Assembly: GCA_963841935.1 (NCBI GenBank)
Contig: CAWJEP010000001.1
Coordinates: forward strand, 10,487-74,486
Reading direction: 5' to 3'
Length of the DNA stretch: 64,000 bases
From: an uncultured bacterium
Lineage (GTDB): Bacteria; Patescibacteriota; Minisyncoccia; Phycocordibacterales; UBA6065
Each line of letters begins with the position of its first letter. The stretch's first letter is position 1. This document shows positions 19,478-32,949 of the stretch, one piece after another. The position numbers and the translations under genes are program-made. The notes beneath the pieces were generated by a model. The model searched no databases. It was not told the origin of the DNA and saw nothing but the letters and a program-made list of their open reading frames with translations.

Positions 19478-20194
19478 CTACGAGCCCAGCGCTGTTTTTA
19501 TCGCCGTTTCAATGTTCGTGGTCGGTTCGGCGCCTACCAAAAGCTGTTTACCTATAATCATGGCTGGTGTGCCGTTGACGCCAAAAGAAGCGCCTTCGGT
19601 TTTATCGGCCACGATTTCATTTTCATATGCCGTTGCCTGCGAAGTCATGAGAGATGACACCTGCGTCGCGTCAGAGGCGCCGAGGACTTGCGTGGTGATG
19701 GACATGATTTTTGCCTGTGTCGCCCAGCCGGAATTTTCTTCTCCTTGATTGTCGAAAATCGCTTTGTGCCAAGCGTAGAATTGGCTTGGCGCGACCGCCC
19801 AGACCGCGCGGGCGGCGATGGAAAGAGTTTCGGAATCATTACCAAGGAACGGAAAATCCTTGAAAACTATTTTTACTTTTCCCGTGTCGACGTAATCCTT
19901 GATAATTTGTGGCAAAGCTGTCTCTTCGTCCTGCTTGCAGAAAGGACATTGATAATCAAACCAATAAGCGATAGTTACCGGCGCGCTGGCGTCTCCGATG
20001 AACGGTTCGCCGCCGGTTTTCACGTTGCTTATGTCGACGGCTTGAGCGGACGGGTTGGCTATGTTTTGCGCTGGCGCGGTCGGCGAACCGGACGACCCGG
20101 GATGAAGAGCCCAGACGATGGCTAAGGCAATGATAATGGCGCCGAGAAGAATAGCCGCGGGAACGGTGAAAGCGTTTTTTTGTTCTGTATTCAT
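19478..20194 (-). CDS. DsbA-family thiol:disulfide oxidoreductase, membrane anchored
   Basis: The product has an N-terminal TM helix, a CPFC active site and a thioredoxin fold. Confidence 0.8.
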   Translation of the reverse strand: MNTEQKNAFTVPAAILLGAIIIALAIVWALHPGSSGSPTAPAQNIANPSAQAVDISNVKTGGEPFIGDASAPVTIAYWFDYQCPFCKQDEETALPQIIKDYVDTGKVKIVFKDFPFLGNDSETLSIAARAVWAVAPSQFYAWHKAIFDNQGEENSGWATQAKIMSITTQVLGASDATQVSSLMTSQATAYENEIVADKTEGASFGVNGTPAMIIGKQLLVGAEPTTNIETAIKTALGS

Positions 20195-24259: not shown

Positions 24260-26320
24260 TTATTTATTCTCCAAAGCTTGAACCTCGGCTTTTAGCGAGT
24301 CTATTTCCGTTTGCTGTTCCTTTACCGCTTCTATTAGAGGCGCGACGAGATTTTGATATTCCACGGATTCAAGTCCGGTTTTGGGGTCTGTCTCCACCAA
24401 GTCCGGGAAAACTTTCTGCACGTTTTGAGCGATTAGACCTACCGACGGCTCGCCGTTGGCTATCCAATTGAACGTCACGCCGTTTAATTGTTCGATTTTT
24501 GAAATGGCGTCCGTAATCGGCTCTATGTTTTCCTTCAACCTTTCGTCCGAACCTTGAGACCATGTGCCCCAATACGTACCGTTGCCATAGAGACGGAATA
24601 TTCCCCCGCCGTTCGCTCCCGTATGCGCGCCGATGTCTACTTCGTTGTCTACTTGAAGAAGTCCGGAACAATTGCCGCAACCGCTCGTCGAGCCTTGAAT
24701 CCAAGTATATCCGTCAAGATACGTGGTAACGCCCGGCGTTACCAAAAACTGCAAGCTCGTAACGGCGAACTCTCCATCCGATTCCCCGCCGCCGCGTAGC
24801 CACGTGTAACCGGGCAAGTATAGCGAAGTCGAATTGTTCGGAGAATAAATAGTCCAGTTGCCTTGATTATTCAAAAGTCCGAACTCGCTCCCGTCCGCGT
24901 ATATGTAACCGCCACTTCCTCCGCCGTAAAGAACGTGAATGTTTCCGTTGACGGATAGAGATTGGTCCGGAGAAGCCGTGCCTATGCCGACAAAGCCGGG
25001 AAAATAAGTGTAGCCGCTCGTGCCGCCGTCGATTTCCAAATAACCGGCGGCGTCGCTATGAATACCGCCACGGGCTTGGAGTTGCGACTGAAAATATACC
25101 GTCCCACTATTGAAATACGCGCCACCGGGAACTATTATGTAGGACGAGGCCGAGATGTATGGGTTAGACGGATAGAAAGACATGTTGCCGTAAAACTCCG
25201 TCCCCGTTTGGTTGGCCGAAACATTGAGAGCCCAATTACCCTGATTGTTTAGAAGTCCGAAATTGCTTCCGTCGCTGTAAATATATCCCAAAACGCCGGA
25301 ATTATTGACCAAATCGATATTGCCGGCGACGGAAAGTTTTTGACCTGGACTCGCCGTGCCGATGCCTACGTTGTTGTAGACTTCCAATTCGAGAGGATAC
25401 GAGGTTATGCCTGTTTTGACTGCCTCGATGTGTCCGACGGAGCCGTCAAAAGATACTCCGACTCCCCCGGAAGTGCCGTCCCCGGGGTCGTAGGAGCCGC
25501 CGGCAAAAAGTCCCCTACCGGCCACGTCGAGTTGTGTGGAACTGCCCGGCACCACGTCCACGCCAACGCTGCCTCCGCTGTAATATATATTCGAACCGGA
25601 AGTCGTCCACTGACTACTCACGACGGAAGGCCAAGAGCTTATACAATTTCCCGCGAGACAAATCTCCGAACTCGCCCATAAATTTGCCAAGGCAAGTCCT
25701 TGTCCGCCGTAGACACTGCCGTTCGCGTCGCTTTCATAAAGCCATCCGTTAGAATAAAAATTGAGACATTGTGTGCCGCTCCCGCCGCAAATAACGCCAA
25801 GATTACCGTATCCGCCGGCGGTGGAATGAATAGCGTAATTTGAACTAAGGGCGCCAACGGTAACGGAGTTCGGCATTGACACGTTGTCCGTGCCATAAGG
25901 CACTTCCACCGCCCAGTTCGTGTTGCTACCAAGCAGTCCGAAACCGCCGGTGTCGCCGTACAAGACGCCCGAGCGCGTGGAACTATTAACAAAAGCATCT
26001 ATTCCGACACTTCCGCTGGAAGAATTTATTCTCTCAACATTGTTCCAATACGAACCCGTGACATCAAGCTTGTAAGACGGACTCGTGTTGCCTATACCAA
26101 CGTTTCCGTATTGGACGATGAGACCGTCTGCCGCGTTACCCGTGTTTAAAAGAAGACCTCCAGTCTTTGCTTGAGCCGTGCCGGAAATATTGAGAGGTGT
26201 GGAAGCGTTATTGCTCGGCGGAGTACCGGTCGGCCCAACCCATTGAGCGGATGCTATGACTGGAAATAAAAGAAAGAGGGAGATGCTAGCGAGGAGTATG
26301 AAGCGCTTTTGTGTGTTCAT
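24260..26320 (-). CDS. secreted tail-fibre-like repeat protein with C-terminal intramolecular-chaperone/autoprotease (peptidase S74-like) domain
   Basis: It has a signal peptide and repeated NVGIGT(A/S)SP..L.V.GNI motifs. The C-terminus reads SDERLKENIEPITDAISKIEQLNGVTFNW...GLIAQNVQKVFPDLV...LIEAVKEQQTEIDSLKAEVQALENK, typical of self-cleaving endosialidase/tail-spike chaperone domains. Confidence 0.7.
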   Translation of the reverse strand: MNTQKRFILLASISLFLLFPVIASAQWVGPTGTPPSNNASTPLNISGTAQAKTGGLLLNTGNAADGLIVQYGNVGIGNTSPSYKLDVTGSYWNNVERINSSSGSVGIDAFVNSSTRSGVLYGDTGGFGLLGSNTNWAVEVPYGTDNVSMPNSVTVGALSSNYAIHSTAGGYGNLGVICGGSGTQCLNFYSNGWLYESDANGSVYGGQGLALANLWASSEICLAGNCISSWPSVVSSQWTTSGSNIYYSGGSVGVDVVPGSSTQLDVAGRGLFAGGSYDPGDGTSGGVGVSFDGSVGHIEAVKTGITSYPLELEVYNNVGIGTASPGQKLSVAGNIDLVNNSGVLGYIYSDGSNFGLLNNQGNWALNVSANQTGTEFYGNMSFYPSNPYISASSYIIVPGGAYFNSGTVYFQSQLQARGGIHSDAAGYLEIDGGTSGYTYFPGFVGIGTASPDQSLSVNGNIHVLYGGGSGGYIYADGSEFGLLNNQGNWTIYSPNNSTSLYLPGYTWLRGGGESDGEFAVTSLQFLVTPGVTTYLDGYTWIQGSTSGCGNCSGLLQVDNEVDIGAHTGANGGGIFRLYGNGTYWGTWSQGSDERLKENIEPITDAISKIEQLNGVTFNWIANGEPSVGLIAQNVQKVFPDLVETDPKTGLESVEYQNLVAPLIEAVKEQQTEIDSLKAEVQALENK

Positions 26321-26341: not shown

Positions 26342-26602
26342 CTATTTCGCCTGAAGTGAGTCGAGAATGTTCTGTTCGCTTGAACTTGAGGTCGTCTTTT
26401 GCGGCGCAGACGTGGCGTTCAGACTGTAGAGAGCGCGTTTCTGCGCCGGCGTAACTCCCTTGAAAAAATTCGGTTGCGCCGACAGATTCTCTAGGGTTGT
26501 CTTTGTGATTTGCGATTGGTTTGAAATAAGAAAGTAGCTGACAACAAAATAAATGATACCGGCAAGAGCGAGAACAATGATTGCTACAAGTATTTTTTTC
26601 AT
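26342..26602 (-). CDS. small single-TM protein (hypothetical)
   Basis: MKKILVAIIVLALAGIIYFVVSYF is the TM helix, followed by an ST-rich tail. Confidence 0.4.
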   Translation of the reverse strand: MKKILVAIIVLALAGIIYFVVSYFLISNQSQITKTTLENLSAQPNFFKGVTPAQKRALYSLNATSAPQKTTSSSSEQNILDSLQAK

Positions 26603-27801
26603 TATATTTCTTGAAATTGTGGATTAAACGTCGTTGGCGTGATGATTAGATTTTTTACCGAAGAACTGACGCCCGATGACGTGCCTTGGAGAGTGATGTT
26701 GCAGGGATTCGGACTCCCGGAGCAATATGAAGCGGTCAATGGTTCATTGATTTCCAATTGGAAAGTGAAGCTGCCGTTTGGACCGATGATTACCGGGCTT
26801 GGGTTCGCGGTGTAAGCGCCGCCGTTTACCGAGTAGAGCGCCGTGGTCGAAGCATTGGGCATCGTCGGATAACCGGAAATGGAAACCGTGACGTTGCCGC
26901 TAAATCCGCCGACGGGATTTACCGTTATGGTTTTTGTCTGCGACTGTGACCAGCCGGCGGGCAAGAAGCTTATTTTTATCGTGTCGTCTGGACCAAGAGA
27001 GAAACCCGGCGGCTGCGAGCCGACGGCGAACGAGACGTTTGACGATGCCACGGTGTTGCCGCCGGACGTGCAGGTTATATTGAAAGCGTAAGAACCGGTG
27101 GTAAGTCCTTGGGTTGCCGTCGAGCCGGACGAAGTGATGCCCGTCACGGTGGTAAACTGCGTGGCGCCCGAAGAAGTTTTCGAAAGCGTGCACGTGGCTC
27201 CGGAAAGATTTACCAGAGTGTAGACAAGATTCACGACCGTACCGTAAGGCACATTATTGTTGTTGGCGACCGATGTCCCGAGTGGAGATTGGGCGTCGAG
27301 GCCGACGCTCGAAGAAAGTTGCACGCCGTTCGTCCCGGCCGCGTTGAAACTTACCCAGCCGAGAAGGCCGCTGTCCCAAGCGTAGCCGTCGAAAAAAGAA
27401 CCCGAAAGCGTGACGCCGTAATTCGTGCCGGAAAGAGAAATCCAGCCGTCCCAACCGTTTCCGTCGGCGGAAACGGCCTTCGCCCAGCCGATGAGATTTG
27501 TGCCGCTCATCTGGGCGTTCTCCGCCGACGTTCCCGAGCCGCTGGGGAATCCGGAGAGACCGCCAAATTGTATCCAGCCCACGGAATCGGACCACGCGTA
27601 GCCCGTGAGTGTGCCGTCGTTGTTGTCCGTCACACCATAGTCCACGGCGCCGCAGGTGCTCGTGTTCGTGCAATTGAAACTAATCCACCCGGCATCATCG
27701 GACCACGCCCAACCAGCCATATTGTTTTCCGTTCCTGCGTGGGCAAACGCCGGTAGGATAAAAATAGAAACCGAAATTAAAAATAGTGCGAACCTCTTCA
27801 T
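26602..27801 (-). CDS. secreted protein with G(W/Y)AWSD..GWISF repeats and a C-terminal domain shared with the TSP1 protein
   Basis: It has a signal peptide and four or more GWAWSDDAGWISF-like repeats. The last 130 aa or so align with the C-terminus of 29728-31532 and end ...TPTTFNPQFQEI*. Confidence 0.6.
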   Translation of the reverse strand: MKRFALFLISVSIFILPAFAHAGTENNMAGWAWSDDAGWISFNCTNTSTCGAVDYGVTDNNDGTLTGYAWSDSVGWIQFGGLSGFPSGSGTSAENAQMSGTNLIGWAKAVSADGNGWDGWISLSGTNYGVTLSGSFFDGYAWDSGLLGWVSFNAAGTNGVQLSSSVGLDAQSPLGTSVANNNNVPYGTVVNLVYTLVNLSGATCTLSKTSSGATQFTTVTGITSSGSTATQGLTTGSYAFNITCTSGGNTVASSNVSFAVGSQPPGFSLGPDDTIKISFLPAGWSQSQTKTITVNPVGGFSGNVTVSISGYPTMPNASTTALYSVNGGAYTANPSPVIIGPNGSFTFQLEINEPLTASYCSGSPNPCNITLQGTSSGVSSSVKNLIITPTTFNPQFQEI

Positions 27802-27822: not shown

Positions 27823-28323
27823 TCAAAGTTTCCTGTCTCGAATGCCTAGTTTGTATCCGACAAAGCAAAAAATGGGGTGAATGGCGAGTATCAAAAGGAC
27901 GCTCAATAAATAAGCGGAAAGCGTTATGTATCCCATGAAAAAAACTATGGCGCCGGTAAAAATTATGTAATTACCGTGGTCTACTACCGGCACATAACCG
28001 CCGTCGGGAACATGAAATCTTCTTTTTATGAAACTGCCGAGAATGTGGCCGAAAAAACAGCCGAAACCTATTATGATACCGACCGGGGAATAAAAAATCT
28101 GAATTAAAATTCCGACAAGAAGAGAAACTACCAGCCCCCACCATGTGGCGGATTTTCCGATAAGTCTCTCGCCCCAAAGACGGAGCCCTCCGTCGAACGG
28201 CGGATCAAAATTTTCCAAATGATAAAGTTTTTTGAAGGCTCCGAGAAAATTGTGGGACATATTCACCAGTCCGCAGAGAATGGCGAACCGTAAAGCTTCC
28301 ATGAATATAAAATAATTCATCAT
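27823..28323 (-). CDS. CTP-transferase-1 superfamily membrane protein, closest to CDP-archaeol synthase (CarS/DUF46) or short CdsA/dolichol-kinase-like enzymes
   Basis: The 166-aa product has GKSATWWG (compare G.GKTWEG/WRG), GHILGSFIKRR (compare GDL.ESFLKRR) and VVDHGNYIIFTG (compare LLDQLDFVIGA of CarS). About five TM helices. Confidence 0.5.
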   Translation of the reverse strand: MMNYFIFMEALRFAILCGLVNMSHNFLGAFKKLYHLENFDPPFDGGLRLWGERLIGKSATWWGLVVSLLVGILIQIFYSPVGIIIGFGCFFGHILGSFIKRRFHVPDGGYVPVVDHGNYIIFTGAIVFFMGYITLSAYLLSVLLILAIHPIFCFVGYKLGIRDRKL

Positions 28324-29721
28324 TTAATATGTGACCACGAAATTATTCACCGGAAAGGCTTCCACGGTATGAATTCCTCCGGCCAAAATCAGGAGTTCGC
28401 TCTCGACATCGACGATTCTCGGTATGCATATAAAATAATCAAAGGTCACGGCGTAATAATTCCATCCGTTTTTCTGTCCGAATAAATGGATGTCGGAAAT
28501 GTTCGCGAGACTGTGTGTCGCGGCCGGCTTCACGAGTGGCTCCTTGGAAACGACAAAAAGAGTGCTCGTGGCATTCACGCGCCAATTGTCACACACAACA
28601 TTGTCAAAAGATATCGGGAAACGATTTGTCGGGTCGCCGGTTTCTTTCGCTATATTTCCTATGGTCACGGGACTTGTCGTGGCGATGTCATAGAAATACA
28701 AATCCCCGATTTTTTCCAAAAATCTCCCCGGCGCGGACGCGTCATAAGTTCCAAGATAAACATTTTGATAAGCTATGGACGTCGTGTCGTAAGAAATGTC
28801 TCCTTCCGTTGAAACAAATACCGGGACTAAAAAACAAATACCCAAAAGCAAAACGGCGGTGGCGCCGAAGACGCGAAAGCGCGAGGCGCCTCTTTCCGCG
28901 AGAAAAAACCATCCGAAATACACGAGTTCCATGCCAAAAACATGTTCAAGATACACCGATACTTGAGTGTGACTTATGGCGCCGAAGGGATAGGCGATAA
29001 TAACGGCGATGGGCGTGACTAGAGAAAGAGCAACGGGGAAAATCCAGCCGCGGAAACTTTTAGGTGCGTAGCCGTAGCACATAACGAGCAGGATGAGAAA
29101 AGCCGGAATAGCTTCGGAGTTCAAAAGTCCTCCGTCGAAAATATTTTTCAAAAAAGAAAGCAGAGCGATGGCGAAAAGTATCTGGAGGCCGAATCTTTTT
29201 TTATTTTTCCCGACAAAATCGAACAGGAGCCATATTCCAAGGATAGACACGGTAAGACATCCGGCAAGTCCGACCCAGCCGACCCATGTCGGCAAAATAT
29301 TGAGGTACGCGAAACCAAAATCGGCTTTTGTCTCGAGCGCGAGCCGAAGCTGGGTCGGAAAAAAAGATGAAACCAGACCGAAAGGAAATTTCAAAACATG
29401 AGTGTGAAAGAAATGCGTCGTAGAAATATCCCTTTCCCCTATCGCTGACAGAACATAGTTCGCCGGAACGGCGAGCATTTTATAAAAGTAGAAAGTTACG
29501 CCAAGACCGAGAAGGAAAATCGCCGTCGAAACGATGAAAAATATATTTTTCAGGGGAAATTTCCGCGCGACAGGCGTTTCGACGGCGATTTTTTTTCGCC
29601 ACGCGATGATATTTACGACAGCCAAAAGCAGAATGGCGAAAAGAAAGAGAAAAACTTTCACGTCACTGCGACCCGCGGCGAAAAGGTCGGTAATAATGTG
29701 CAGAAAGAAGAAATAATTCAT
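28324..29721 (-). CDS. large polytopic membrane protein with a C-terminal extracytoplasmic domain (hypothetical; GT-C glycosyltransferase-like or sorting-enzyme-like)
   Basis: The 465-aa product has 10 or more TM helices followed by a soluble tail of about 150 aa. It is tightly coupled to the flanking genes. Confidence 0.55.
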   Translation of the reverse strand: MNYFFFLHIITDLFAAGRSDVKVFLFLFAILLLAVVNIIAWRKKIAVETPVARKFPLKNIFFIVSTAIFLLGLGVTFYFYKMLAVPANYVLSAIGERDISTTHFFHTHVLKFPFGLVSSFFPTQLRLALETKADFGFAYLNILPTWVGWVGLAGCLTVSILGIWLLFDFVGKNKKRFGLQILFAIALLSFLKNIFDGGLLNSEAIPAFLILLVMCYGYAPKSFRGWIFPVALSLVTPIAVIIAYPFGAISHTQVSVYLEHVFGMELVYFGWFFLAERGASRFRVFGATAVLLLGICFLVPVFVSTEGDISYDTTSIAYQNVYLGTYDASAPGRFLEKIGDLYFYDIATTSPVTIGNIAKETGDPTNRFPISFDNVVCDNWRVNATSTLFVVSKEPLVKPAATHSLANISDIHLFGQKNGWNYYAVTFDYFICIPRIVDVESELLILAGGIHTVEAFPVNNFVVTY

Positions 29722-29727
29722 CGAAAC

Positions 29728-31532
29728 TTATATCTCCTTAAAATTCGGATTGAAACTGTTTGGACTTACGGTGAGGTTAAATGTCGTGGATGTGTCGCCG
29801 CCGGAAGCGTCAAACGTCACATAGCAGGAATTGGTAAAGCCCGAAGGGAATTGTATTTGGATATTGAGACCGACATTTCCGGACGGCGCTCGATAATTAC
29901 CGGAACCGTCGTCGCTCATTACCGTGGAAGGACTTTGAGTGAATGCTCCGCCGTCAAAAGAGTAGCCGGAGGGATTCGGCTGGCAGGTGGTTGATTGAAC
30001 GGTCACAGTTACGGGAGAACTGAATCCTCCCGTAGGATTGACTTCCAGCGTGCTTACGTTCGTCGTGCCGCCTTCGTTGGCTACGAACTGTATGCTTGCC
30101 GAAGACGGGCCGGAAAGAGTAAAACCCGACGTGGGATTGTTGCCGTTACTACCGCCATTGTTACCGCCGTTGGTACCGCCGTTGGTACCGCCGTTGGTAC
30201 CCGTTCCAGTCTGACCCGATGGATAAGTGCACGGAGCGGTTCCCTCATAGTTGGTTGCGTTTGGATCTGTGCAAAGCTCCGAATATGTGCACGGTAGAGC
30301 GCCTCCGTAATTATTTGCGTTCGGGTCGACGCAAAGTTGCGCCGACGGATATGTGCACGGCGCGTAGCCGTCATAATTCGACGCGCTCGGGTCCGTGCAT
30401 TCCGCCGGACAAGAAGCCGTCGTGGAAATAACCGACCCGTCCCAACACGTCTGGGTTGTGGGATTTGTCGTGCACGACTGAGTGTTGCAATCCTGACTTT
30501 CCGAACTGCTTCCGGAACAAGTCGCGCCGCCGTTTGCCGGAGTGGGATTCGTGCAAGTTCTGGTCTGTGTTTGATTTCCGCCGCCACAAGTAGCAGAACA
30601 AGTTCCCCATCCAGACCAAGCCGACCAGCCACCGTTTACGGGACATACTTGGGTGTTGCAAGTTTGAGAACTGCTTCCGGAACAAGTCGCGCCGCCGTTT
30701 GCCGGAGTGGGATTCGTGCAAGTTCTGGTCTCCGTACCACCGCCGCAAGTTTCTGAACACGTTCCCCAACTTGACCAGCCGCCGTCGACTTTCGTGGGCG
30801 GAGTAACGCACGCTGGTTCAGTACATGTTTGAGTTTGCGTGCCTGTGCCGCTAGTATCTCCGGAGCAATCAGCACCGCCGTTTGCCGGAGCGGGATTCGT
30901 ACACGTTTTGGTCTGTGTACCGGTACCGCAAGTTACACTGCACGTTCCCCAAGCCGACCATTCGCCATTTACAGGACACGCTTGGGTATTGCAAATTTGA
31001 GATTCGGAACTGTCTCCGGAACAATCGGCTCCGCCGTTTGCCGGAGCAGGATTCGTGCAAGTTCGCGTCGCGGTTTGCGTGCCGCCACCGCAAGTGGCTG
31101 AACATGTTCCCCAACTTGACCAGTCGGACCAGCCGCCGTCCACCTTTTGTGGTGTCGGATTTGTTGAGGGACAATCGCTAAGAGCGCTTTGAGAGAACTC
31201 ATTCGTCACGCCGTCGGGACACGTCCAGTAACAAGGTTCTGTTCCGCGGTAGTTTGTTGCGGTGTGATCTAAACACGCGTTACCGCAAAATAGTCCGCAC
31301 TCGCCATTTGGATACGATGTTGTGGGGTCATTGGGACAAGTGCAGTCCGGGAGACTTCCGCCGCCTCCATAACCGCCACCGCCAAAAGGACCGCAGTTAA
31401 TGGCTGAGTTACTGCATGCGCCGCCATAATACCGCCAGATTCGCTCCCCACTTGGGCAAAAGCTAAATGAGAAGATAAAGAAAAAATCAGAGAGAAAATA
31501 AATATTCTTGATAAATATAATCTGGTATTCAT
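29728..31532 (-). CDS. secreted Cys-rich protein with four thrombospondin type-1 repeats; signal peptide in a different frame (frameshift near 31441-31457)
   Basis: There are four copies of W(S/T)[18 protein letters not shown]..RTCTNP.PANGGA.CSG....Q.CNTQ.CP (WSxW and CSVTCG motifs). Three C(T/V)DP.A.NY....PCTY repeats follow. Then comes a TNGG linker and a C-terminal domain ending [10 protein letters not shown]. The signal peptide [26 protein letters not shown] starts at ATG 31532-31530 in another frame, and the main frame is open upstream to about 31520. Confidence 0.7.
30370..31160. repeat. intragenic tandem repeats of about 165 bp (TSP1 modules)
   Basis: Two copies are near-identical: aactgcttccggaacaagtcgcgccgccgtttgccggagtgggattcgtgcaagttctggtct at 30504-30565 and again at 30669-30731. 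Two more diverged copies lie upstream. Confidence 0.7.
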
Positions 31533-31542
31533 ATTTTTATTT

Positions 31543-32949
31543 TTATATGTTTCCACTCATGGTCGGTGGTTGAGGCAAGGGCTTTTTCTTTTTTAACACA
31601 ACCACAATAGCCAAAATAACAAGAACGCCTGCGATTGCATAATATATGTACATCGTGGTGTTGGATGTCCATTGAGTCTTCGGTGACGGACACCTGTTCG
31701 CGTCACATATGTACAGAACGGATGAGGACGCGAGGATTGTCCCGTACTGGTCGGTAGTCTTTATGCTGAGAGTTAATGGTTCAAAAATATTTGTCGTGGG
31801 AGAAAAATGAATCTGGAAAGGATAGGATGAGGCGTTTCTTTCGGAGAAACCTCCGGACCAGACGCTCTTGCCAAGAGAATCAACAAGAGAAAGGTCAACC
31901 GTCGTCGTGGCCGCGGTGTTGGAGTAATTTTGGGTGAGGCATCCTGCCACGCTGTTTGAAACTCCAGCGGAAATTGGAAAATTGGAGAGGTAAAGCGAGC
32001 GGGCGCCCGGCTCCACGATGTCACTTCGACCTATGCGAAGAGAGAACATTGATTCTTTGTCGCCATCCTTTAGTTCTCCGACCAAAAGATATTTTGCGTG
32101 GACAAAATTGTTGTACGTGAAAGAAACGACACTATTTTTGTTCGGCGAAAGTTGAACGGAATCGGTTTCCGTGGCAACAAGCGCTGTGGGATTTATAAAA
32201 TTGCCGCTATATAGATACCAACCGACCGTGACATTATGAGAAGCGGTGTATGTATTCTCTACGCCAACTGAAGTAACCGCCGTCGGCACGGTAATTGTCG
32301 AAAGCATCTGCGTCATCGGCACAACGCCGTTCACTTTCATCGTCGGCAAATCAAAAAATGATGTTTGTTCTTCCGTTCCGGTAACGGCCAACGGATATGT
32401 GGCTAGCGGAATATTGAGATATTCGTTTCCTCCAATGGCAAATTGGTCGGAACCATTTAAAAACAAGTCAACTTGATATGGTCCGGTAACTAAATCTCGT
32501 GGCACGGGGTAATTGAAAGAAAATGACGCTGTTGCTTTGGGGTTTAGGTATATTCCCGTCAAAGGAATAATCCGGTCCACCGTGTCTGTCGCCATATCAT
32601 AGGAAGAACCGGATTTTTTTTGAAGTTTTACTACGCGAGCGACAAGAGTTAAGTCGGAAACCGGATAACTGTTGAGATTATCGATAGTGCCGGCAATAAT
32701 CACATTGCTACCGGCAGAGACTTTGGTATTACCCACAAGAAAACTCGCTCTAACGAGAGAGTTAGCCAAAAGACATGTCGAAGGGAAAATCAGTTGCGTC
32801 GGCGTGGTGGACGAAAACGAAATACCGGCTCCCAACTGAGAAACGTCGGCCGCCGAGACAAATTGAAAAGAAAGGAACGGTAGGAGAAAAAAAACAAAAG
32901 AAAATATAAGACGCCTAGAACTCATGCCGAAAAGTATACCAACTGACAT
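31543..32949 (-). CDS. type-I membrane surface protein (signal peptide, beta-rich ectodomain, C-terminal TM anchor plus KKKK stop-transfer)
   Basis: The 468-aa product ends with ...YYAIAGVLVILAIVVVLKKKKPLPQPP. It overlaps the downstream gene by 14 nt. Confidence 0.55.
   Translation of the reverse strand: MSVGILFGMSSRRLIFSFVFFLLPFLSFQFVSAADVSQLGAGISFSSTTPTQLIFPSTCLLANSLVRASFLVGNTKVSAGSNVIIAGTIDNLNSYPVSDLTLVARVVKLQKKSGSSYDMATDTVDRIIPLTGIYLNPKATASFSFNYPVPRDLVTGPYQVDLFLNGSDQFAIGGNEYLNIPLATYPLAVTGTEEQTSFFDLPTMKVNGVVPMTQMLSTITVPTAVTSVGVENTYTASHNVTVGWYLYSGNFINPTALVATETDSVQLSPNKNSVVSFTYNNFVHAKYLLVGELKDGDKESMFSLRIGRSDIVEPGARSLYLSNFPISAGVSNSVAGCLTQNYSNTAATTTVDLSLVDSLGKSVWSGGFSERNASSYPFQIHFSPTTNIFEPLTLSIKTTDQYGTILASSSVLYICDANRCPSPKTQWTSNTTMYIYYAIAGVLVILAIVVVLKKKKPLPQPPTMSGNI

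Follow-up and report, generated by a model that had tools for sequence, protein, structure and literature searches.

Four animal-type thrombospondin type-1 repeats in a modular, probably surface-exposed protein of a CPR-type bacterium

The locus and its genes

The 64,000-nucleotide stretch of uncultured bacterial DNA analysed here (the window) carries an island of surface-protein genes that adjoins nusA and has H+-PPase, pgk and tpiA genes around it as well; one gene of the island encodes a protein with four thrombospondin type-1 repeats (TSRs). Ribosomal protein L2 of the window is 78-81% identical to Paceibacterota/Taylorbacteria proteins, and judged by its sequence the host is a CPR bacterium of the Paceibacteria/Parcubacteria type, the TSR gene being chromosomal. 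The island is conserved in six lineages.

The TSR gene is read from the minus strand and ends in a stop codon at 29728-29730. Upstream of it, on the same strand, lies the gene for a 468-aa protein (31543-32949) that has, besides a signal peptide, a transmembrane helix at its C-terminus and a KKKK tail; the stop codon of this gene is 11 nt from the ATG of the TSR gene. Downstream, also on the minus strand, are the genes for a multi-pass membrane protein of 465 aa that matches no family (28324-29721); a small CarS-like membrane protein of the CDP-archaeol synthase family (27823-28323; Pfam PF01864, E=7e-15, the NCBIfam score being under that model's cut-off); a 399-aa paralog of the TSR protein (26602-27801) with a signal peptide, GWAWS..GWISF repeats and the terminal residues FNPQFQEI; and a secreted fibre-like protein of 686 aa (24260-26320) that has a C-terminal Peptidase_S74 intramolecular-chaperone domain and closes the conserved island. 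A small transmembrane protein of 86 aa is encoded at 26342-26602.

The Peptidase_S74 domain, a tail-spike chaperone, raises the question of whether the region is phage-derived, as a tail-fibre or receptor-binding cluster in which the TSR protein would serve as a viral host-recognition protein. We consider this very improbable: the island is flanked by nusA and the H+-PPase, pgk and tpiA genes, its position is constant across lineages with 73-97% NusA identity, and IMG/VR, scanned for motifs of the TSR protein and of its C-terminal domain, yielded no relatives.

Reading frame of the TSR gene

A first-pass annotation of this DNA had read 29728-31532 as a single open reading frame, which does not hold. 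The ATG at 31532 begins a textbook Sec signal peptide (26 aa, 31455-31532, minus strand, with cleavage after AFA and before Q), homologous to those of P0044 and P0122, two orthologs with intact genes, but this peptide is out of frame with the remaining protein. The domain-bearing frame is open from 31536 to 29731 and has no start codon ahead of 31209, where a GTG starts the mechanically called minus-strand ORF of 493 aa. Three-frame translation, together with DNA and protein alignment to P0044, places the frameshift at 31431-31454 on the minus strand, in the sequence CAAGTGGGGAGCGAATCTGGCGGT; restoring one base within this zone would join both frames, in line with the two intact orthologs.

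If the frameshift were real, the copy of the TSR protein in this genome would not be secreted, and the locus could be a pseudogene that is decaying or under replacement. Such a reading can draw on the failure of the ATG to open a continuous frame, on the absence of the exact 493-aa ORF from called-protein records, and on the closest relative, L036, which has no TSRs; we nevertheless find it doubtful, as the 567 codons downstream of the shift are open with every cysteine and motif intact, and no slippery site is present. Moreover, the H+-PPase gene in the same window, a housekeeping gene, is split by a single-base deletion of the same type (GG to G at about 37120, with TACGACCC in place of the expected TACGGACCC, by comparison with an intact ortholog), which indicates assembly indels; accordingly, a fault of assembly, not biology, is the most likely source of the 1-nt frameshift behind the signal peptide. 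A pattern spanning the frameshift site had no match in the JGI metagenomes, and a metagenome scan with a degenerate pattern of the N-terminal module matched only the organism that carries P0044. The 3' part of the window recurs in a Logan contig, which ends within the TSR gene.

Identity and fold of the repeats

The four TSRs that had been claimed for this protein are found on the minus strand as TSR1 (30967-31137, ending in CNTQACP), TSR2 (30784-30966, with a longer loop between the fourth and fifth cysteines), TSR3 (30634-30783) and TSR4 (30466-30633), each matching Pfam TSP_1 and each with six cysteines, a WxxW(xxW) strand and the motif CSxTCGxG. Against the TSP_1 model (PF00090), the search by which the domain call was to be checked, the protein scores 117.1 bits (cut-off 21.6; E=3.8e-34) over four stretches, and PF19028, PF19030 and PF22195 are likewise matched. 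Nor is the cysteine pattern, the other point on which the call could have failed, incompatible with the TSR topology: it is exactly that of a group-1 TSR, with a spacing compatible with the predicted disulfide bonds C1-C5, C2-C6 and C3-C4. TSR1 aligns with TSR3 of human thrombospondin-1 (PDB 7yyk/1lsl) without gaps and with six of six cysteines matched, and sequence matches in the PDB were to properdin and thrombospondin-1 (E=1e-33 to 1e-38, the latter value for properdin). The protein thus contains four genuine animal-type thrombospondin type-1 repeats; with animal TSRs (TSR2-3 of thrombospondin-1, PDB 1LSL/7YYK, and those of properdin, UNC5 and BAI1) they share the group-1 six-cysteine spacing, the WxxW(xxW) strand, CSxTCGxG and CxNPxPxxGGxxC.

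An AlphaFold model of the protein, starting at YYGGACS, gives the TSRs a pLDDT of 60-86 and predicts for them the elongated three-stranded TSR fold. In Foldseek comparisons the predicted repeats superpose on animal TSRs at 2.2-2.6 A (UNC5D TSP1, over 53-57 columns), with a TM score of 0.82 to BAI1 TSR3 and a probability of 1.00 for thrombospondin-1 and properdin. The tryptophan ladder of strand A reads WSDWSSW, WSAW, WSSW and WSAWSGW across the four TSRs, while strand B keeps a single basic residue per repeat ahead of the third cysteine (Arg, or Lys in TSR2), the remaining positions of the RxR ladder being Thr or Gln. With only this one basic residue of the Arg ladder kept, the repeats may bind ligands in another way than animal TSRs do. 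Further differences from the animal repeats are the CPR host, entirely other flanking domains, and the lack in a bacterial host of the eukaryotic ER glycosylation machinery; sequons for O-fucosylation (CxxS/TCxxG) and C-mannosylation (WxxW) are present in all four TSRs, and family searches with the neighbouring membrane proteins gave no POFUT2- or DPY19-like match.

Flanking modules and the C-terminal domain

Behind the signal peptide the protein begins with a cysteine-rich N-terminal module of 98 aa (31138-31431, minus strand), which the first-pass annotation had also recognised and in which we count ten cysteines; it is kept in P0044 and P0122. Past the TSRs come a spacer with two cysteines (30400-30465, minus strand) and then, as had been described, three C(T/V)DPxAxNY....PCTY mini-repeats with two cysteines each (30349-30399, 30283-30333 and 30223-30273, minus strand, together spanning 30223-30399), a divergent fourth copy of which (CxDxxAxNY..C, 31225-31275) lies inside the N-module. 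The (TNGG)n linker, likewise reported before, is a Gly/Asn/Thr-rich stretch at 30142-30201 (minus strand) encoded by a 12-nt tandem repeat with five copies and 89% matches. Neither the N-module nor the mini-repeats match a Pfam model, and AlphaFold gives both low confidence and no usable structure. The number of cysteines is even in every module (10, 6, 6, 6, 6, 8, 0 and 2; 44 in total), and among the other genes of the window is one (19478-20194) for a DsbA-like oxidoreductase that is membrane-anchored and has a CPFC motif.

The protein ends in a C-terminal domain (CTD) of about 131 aa (29731-30123, minus strand), predicted with confidence as an Ig-like beta-sandwich and followed by a disordered tail with the ending P-x-[FY]-x-E-x. 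That this domain is shared, as first suggested, is borne out by the ORF at 26602-27801, which carries the same CTD (tblastn E=5e-21). It has no match among Pfam and NCBIfam models, and since a word-indexed search with the CTD alignment gave one fragment only, an exhaustive profile search was used instead; this yielded a family of 79 clusters, the HMM of which matches the TSR protein of the window at 3.5e-49. All 55 full-length matches lie at the C-terminus of their protein, 53 of them with the P-x-[FY]-x-E-x ending, and 38 of the 45 long, Met-starting CTD proteins have signal-peptide-like N-termini. The CTD is therefore an obligately terminal, unannotated Ig-like family of about 135 aa that stands behind variable passengers, among them LCCL, PKD, Big_7, Gly_rich_2 and Hint domains. 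The CxDPxAxNY motif occurs in 18 of 80 CTD-family representatives, and TSRs in only 3 of the 80.

Relatives and exchange of modules

The nearest relatives show how readily the central part of the protein changes. L036, in which NusA is 97% identical, has an ortholog (P0122) that keeps the N-module and the CTD but no TSRs, and the modules common to both proteins are only 55-57% identical; the TSRs are therefore a swappable cassette. P0044 has five TSRs and P0126 four; TSR1 and TSR2 are matched in position by repeats of P0044, and TSR2 is nearest to TSR3 of that protein (0.81 identity). Among close relatives the modules exchanged in the centre include TSRs, an Ig-like module, PKD, LCCL and Hint.

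The first-pass annotation had described the TSRs as near-identical DNA modules of about 165 bp that could expand or contract by recombination. The first part has to be corrected: the modules are 150-183 bp long and pairwise 74-85% identical. The second part is supported on the evolutionary scale only, by copy numbers of 0, 4 and 5 in relatives, and gains no support from the present DNA identity. It is accordingly unlikely that the gene is a contingency locus in which TSR number shifts rapidly through recombination among repeat DNA. A 64-nt tract common to TSR4 (30503-30566) and TSR3 (30668-30731), the 12-nt tandem repeat of the linker and the varying TSR counts would fit such a locus, but that tract is the only identical one, TRF detects no array of TSR modules, and the relatives differ by replacement of the whole cassette and not by unit slippage.

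The genes around the TSR gene vary in how closely they follow the CTD. The 399-aa paralog is kept in L002, L033, L034 and L038 (47-69% identity). Homologs of the 468-aa protein sit ahead of CTD genes in L002, L036 and L038, and a region homologous to it is fused to the CTD protein P0171, so that the 468-aa protein is a candidate for a membrane-anchored partner of the TSR protein; it shows a weak Gram_pos_anchor match (E=0.08) and no LPXTG motif. The 465-aa gene is present in L002 and L036, and neither it nor the CarS-like gene is consistently linked to CTD loci across relatives. We considered these two as a pair of dedicated sorting or glycosylation proteins, for example with a DPY19-like C-mannosyltransferase acting on WxxW, and rejected the idea because family searches gave no supporting match for either protein, the TSR-less ortholog in L036 is likewise followed by the 465-aa gene, and the pair is missing from L033, L034 and L038.

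Distribution and origin of prokaryotic TSRs

TSRs are usually regarded as animal or apicomplexan domains, and the earlier statement that they are uncommon in bacteria holds, yet the present case does not stand alone: when GTDB species genomes were scanned with a narrow motif, TSRs turned up in at least 28 loci of other bacteria and archaea, from several phyla. The carriers of TSP_1 domains include Azotimanducaceae, Myxococcota and Bacteriovoracaceae, as well as CPR of the Moran-, Nomura- and Microgenomates types and a Pacearchaeota MAG, so that TSRs are scattered over several prokaryotic lineages with cell-associated lifestyles. Their proteins have the same TSR subtype (0.7-0.84 identity per repeat) and are large and secreted, with 1-12 TSR copies; none of these loci has the CPR CTD or the nusA-adjacent island. 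No paper on type-1 repeats in bacteria, CPR included, emerged from a literature search, and the sole text on a "bacterial thrombospondin" concerned type-3 repeats.

Nearly all top database matches of the TSR protein are metazoan, as might be expected of an assembly chimera or of eukaryotic contamination, but the chance of either is negligible: independent assemblies, three from ENA and one from a JGI metagenome (P0044), show the same architecture, the window's 3' part is reproduced by the Logan contig, and the gene combines a bacterial signal peptide and a CPR-specific CTD with a lack of introns. The matches to metazoan coadhesin, SCO-spondin and ADAMTS-like proteins take in only the TSR block, 37-50% of the query; the single match with 55% query coverage is the coadhesin-like P0047. 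Matches to the N-module, mini-repeats and CTD are confined to CPR proteins.

Recent acquisition of the TSRs from an animal or other eukaryotic host, with mimicry of the host matrix and hence a eukaryote-associated lifestyle, also seems unlikely. In its favour, identity is 40-63% between the repeats and the TSRs of invertebrate coadhesin, SCO-spondin and ADAMTS-like proteins and about 47-54% between the repeats and those of human and mouse, and all four keep both kinds of glycosylation sequon. Against it, the nearest neighbour is another prokaryotic TSR for 74 of 85 prokaryotic TSRs, despite a comparison set of 1224 other TSRs that are mostly eukaryotic and were pre-selected for similarity; the mean best identity of CPR TSRs is 0.75 to prokaryotic and 0.70 to other TSRs, in comparisons that rest on domains of 50 columns. 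Prokaryotic TSRs are thus slightly closer to one another than to animal TSRs. In addition, codon composition is native (GC3 of 0.48 in the TSR region, within a window range of 0.47-0.65), P0044 has the positional counterparts of TSR1 and TSR2, and the modules flanking the TSRs are CPR-specific.

Proposed role and comparison with known systems

Taken as a whole, the evidence is best explained by a Sec-secreted, disulfide-rich, modular cell-surface protein of Patescibacteria, a reading we hold to be probable. Its parts follow one another as signal peptide, ten-cysteine N-module, four TSRs, three CxDPxAxNY mini-repeats, linker and Ig-like CTD, which closes with P-x-F-x-E-I-COOH. The CTD and its tail would keep the protein at the cell surface, docked either to the envelope or to a partner that the island itself encodes, while the linker and a rigid array of TSRs (roughly 5 nm each in known TSR structures) would push the N-terminal modules outward. 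The TSRs themselves may act as adhesive and spacer modules that attach the cell to a host cell, prey or substrate, a role such as would be expected in an epibiotic CPR bacterium. Adhesion by the TSRs and anchoring by the CTD are suggested by architecture and analogy, by which the best reading is a surface protein for host or substrate adhesion.

Host attachment in CPR/Patescibacteria is largely uncharacterised, and this locus provides a specific candidate amenable to laboratory expression. Routine Pfam annotation would have yielded the TSR call, and the value of the locus therefore lies in its context and not in the domain match: a hypervariable modular surface protein counts a near-consensus animal-type TSR among its cassettes and mounts it on a CTD from an unannotated family whose terminal motif is sharply conserved. 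The TSRs are one of several swappable modules, not unique among bacteria, in a fast-changing gene cluster.

The CTD invites comparison with the T9SS CTD, the LPXTG signal and the WxL domain, which are likewise obligately C-terminal with a highly variable passenger ahead and, like the CPR CTD, belong to proteins encoded in surface-protein clusters; the T9SS CTD and WxL-associated proteins also have a small Ig-like beta-sandwich such as is predicted for the CPR CTD. However, the CPR CTD has no HMM match to the T9SS CTD (Por_Secre_tail), its likeness being one of position and Ig-like fold only, and to our knowledge CPR bacteria have neither an outer membrane nor a T9SS. Unlike LPXTG sortase proteins, the TSR protein has no LPXTG motif and no transmembrane segment at its C-terminus, and unlike sorting and anchor domains in general, the CPR CTD has as its conserved element a free C-terminal P-x-F-x-E-Phi tail.

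A bolder reading, to which we assign a minor chance, is that the nusA island is a Patescibacteria-specific surface-display system. The CTD tail would dock exchangeable adhesive cassettes (TSR, LCCL, PKD, Hint and others, rapidly exchanged), possibly through a partner of the 468-aa type, and the TSR cassette would come from a prokaryotic pool of TSRs used as cell-attachment modules and in circulation between lineages of episymbionts and predators (CPR, DPANN, Bacteriovoracaceae and Myxococcota). If true, this would reopen the question of prokaryotic roots for the "animal" TSR.

For the adhesive surface protein that we favour, a further parallel is offered by the apicomplexan TRAP/MIC2-type adhesins, in which parasites have recruited TSRs to attach to their hosts (Aravind et al. 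2012, PMC3417536). By analogy, both would place extracellular adhesive TSRs on a host-dependent microbe, the passenger being N-terminal and the C-terminus holding the protein to the cell. TRAP differs in having a vWA domain, a transmembrane helix and a motor-linked cytoplasmic tail, whereas the CPR TSR protein has neither a vWA domain nor a transmembrane helix. A protein that combines vWA and TSR domains does occur in other CPR/DPANN MAGs (L018/L019).

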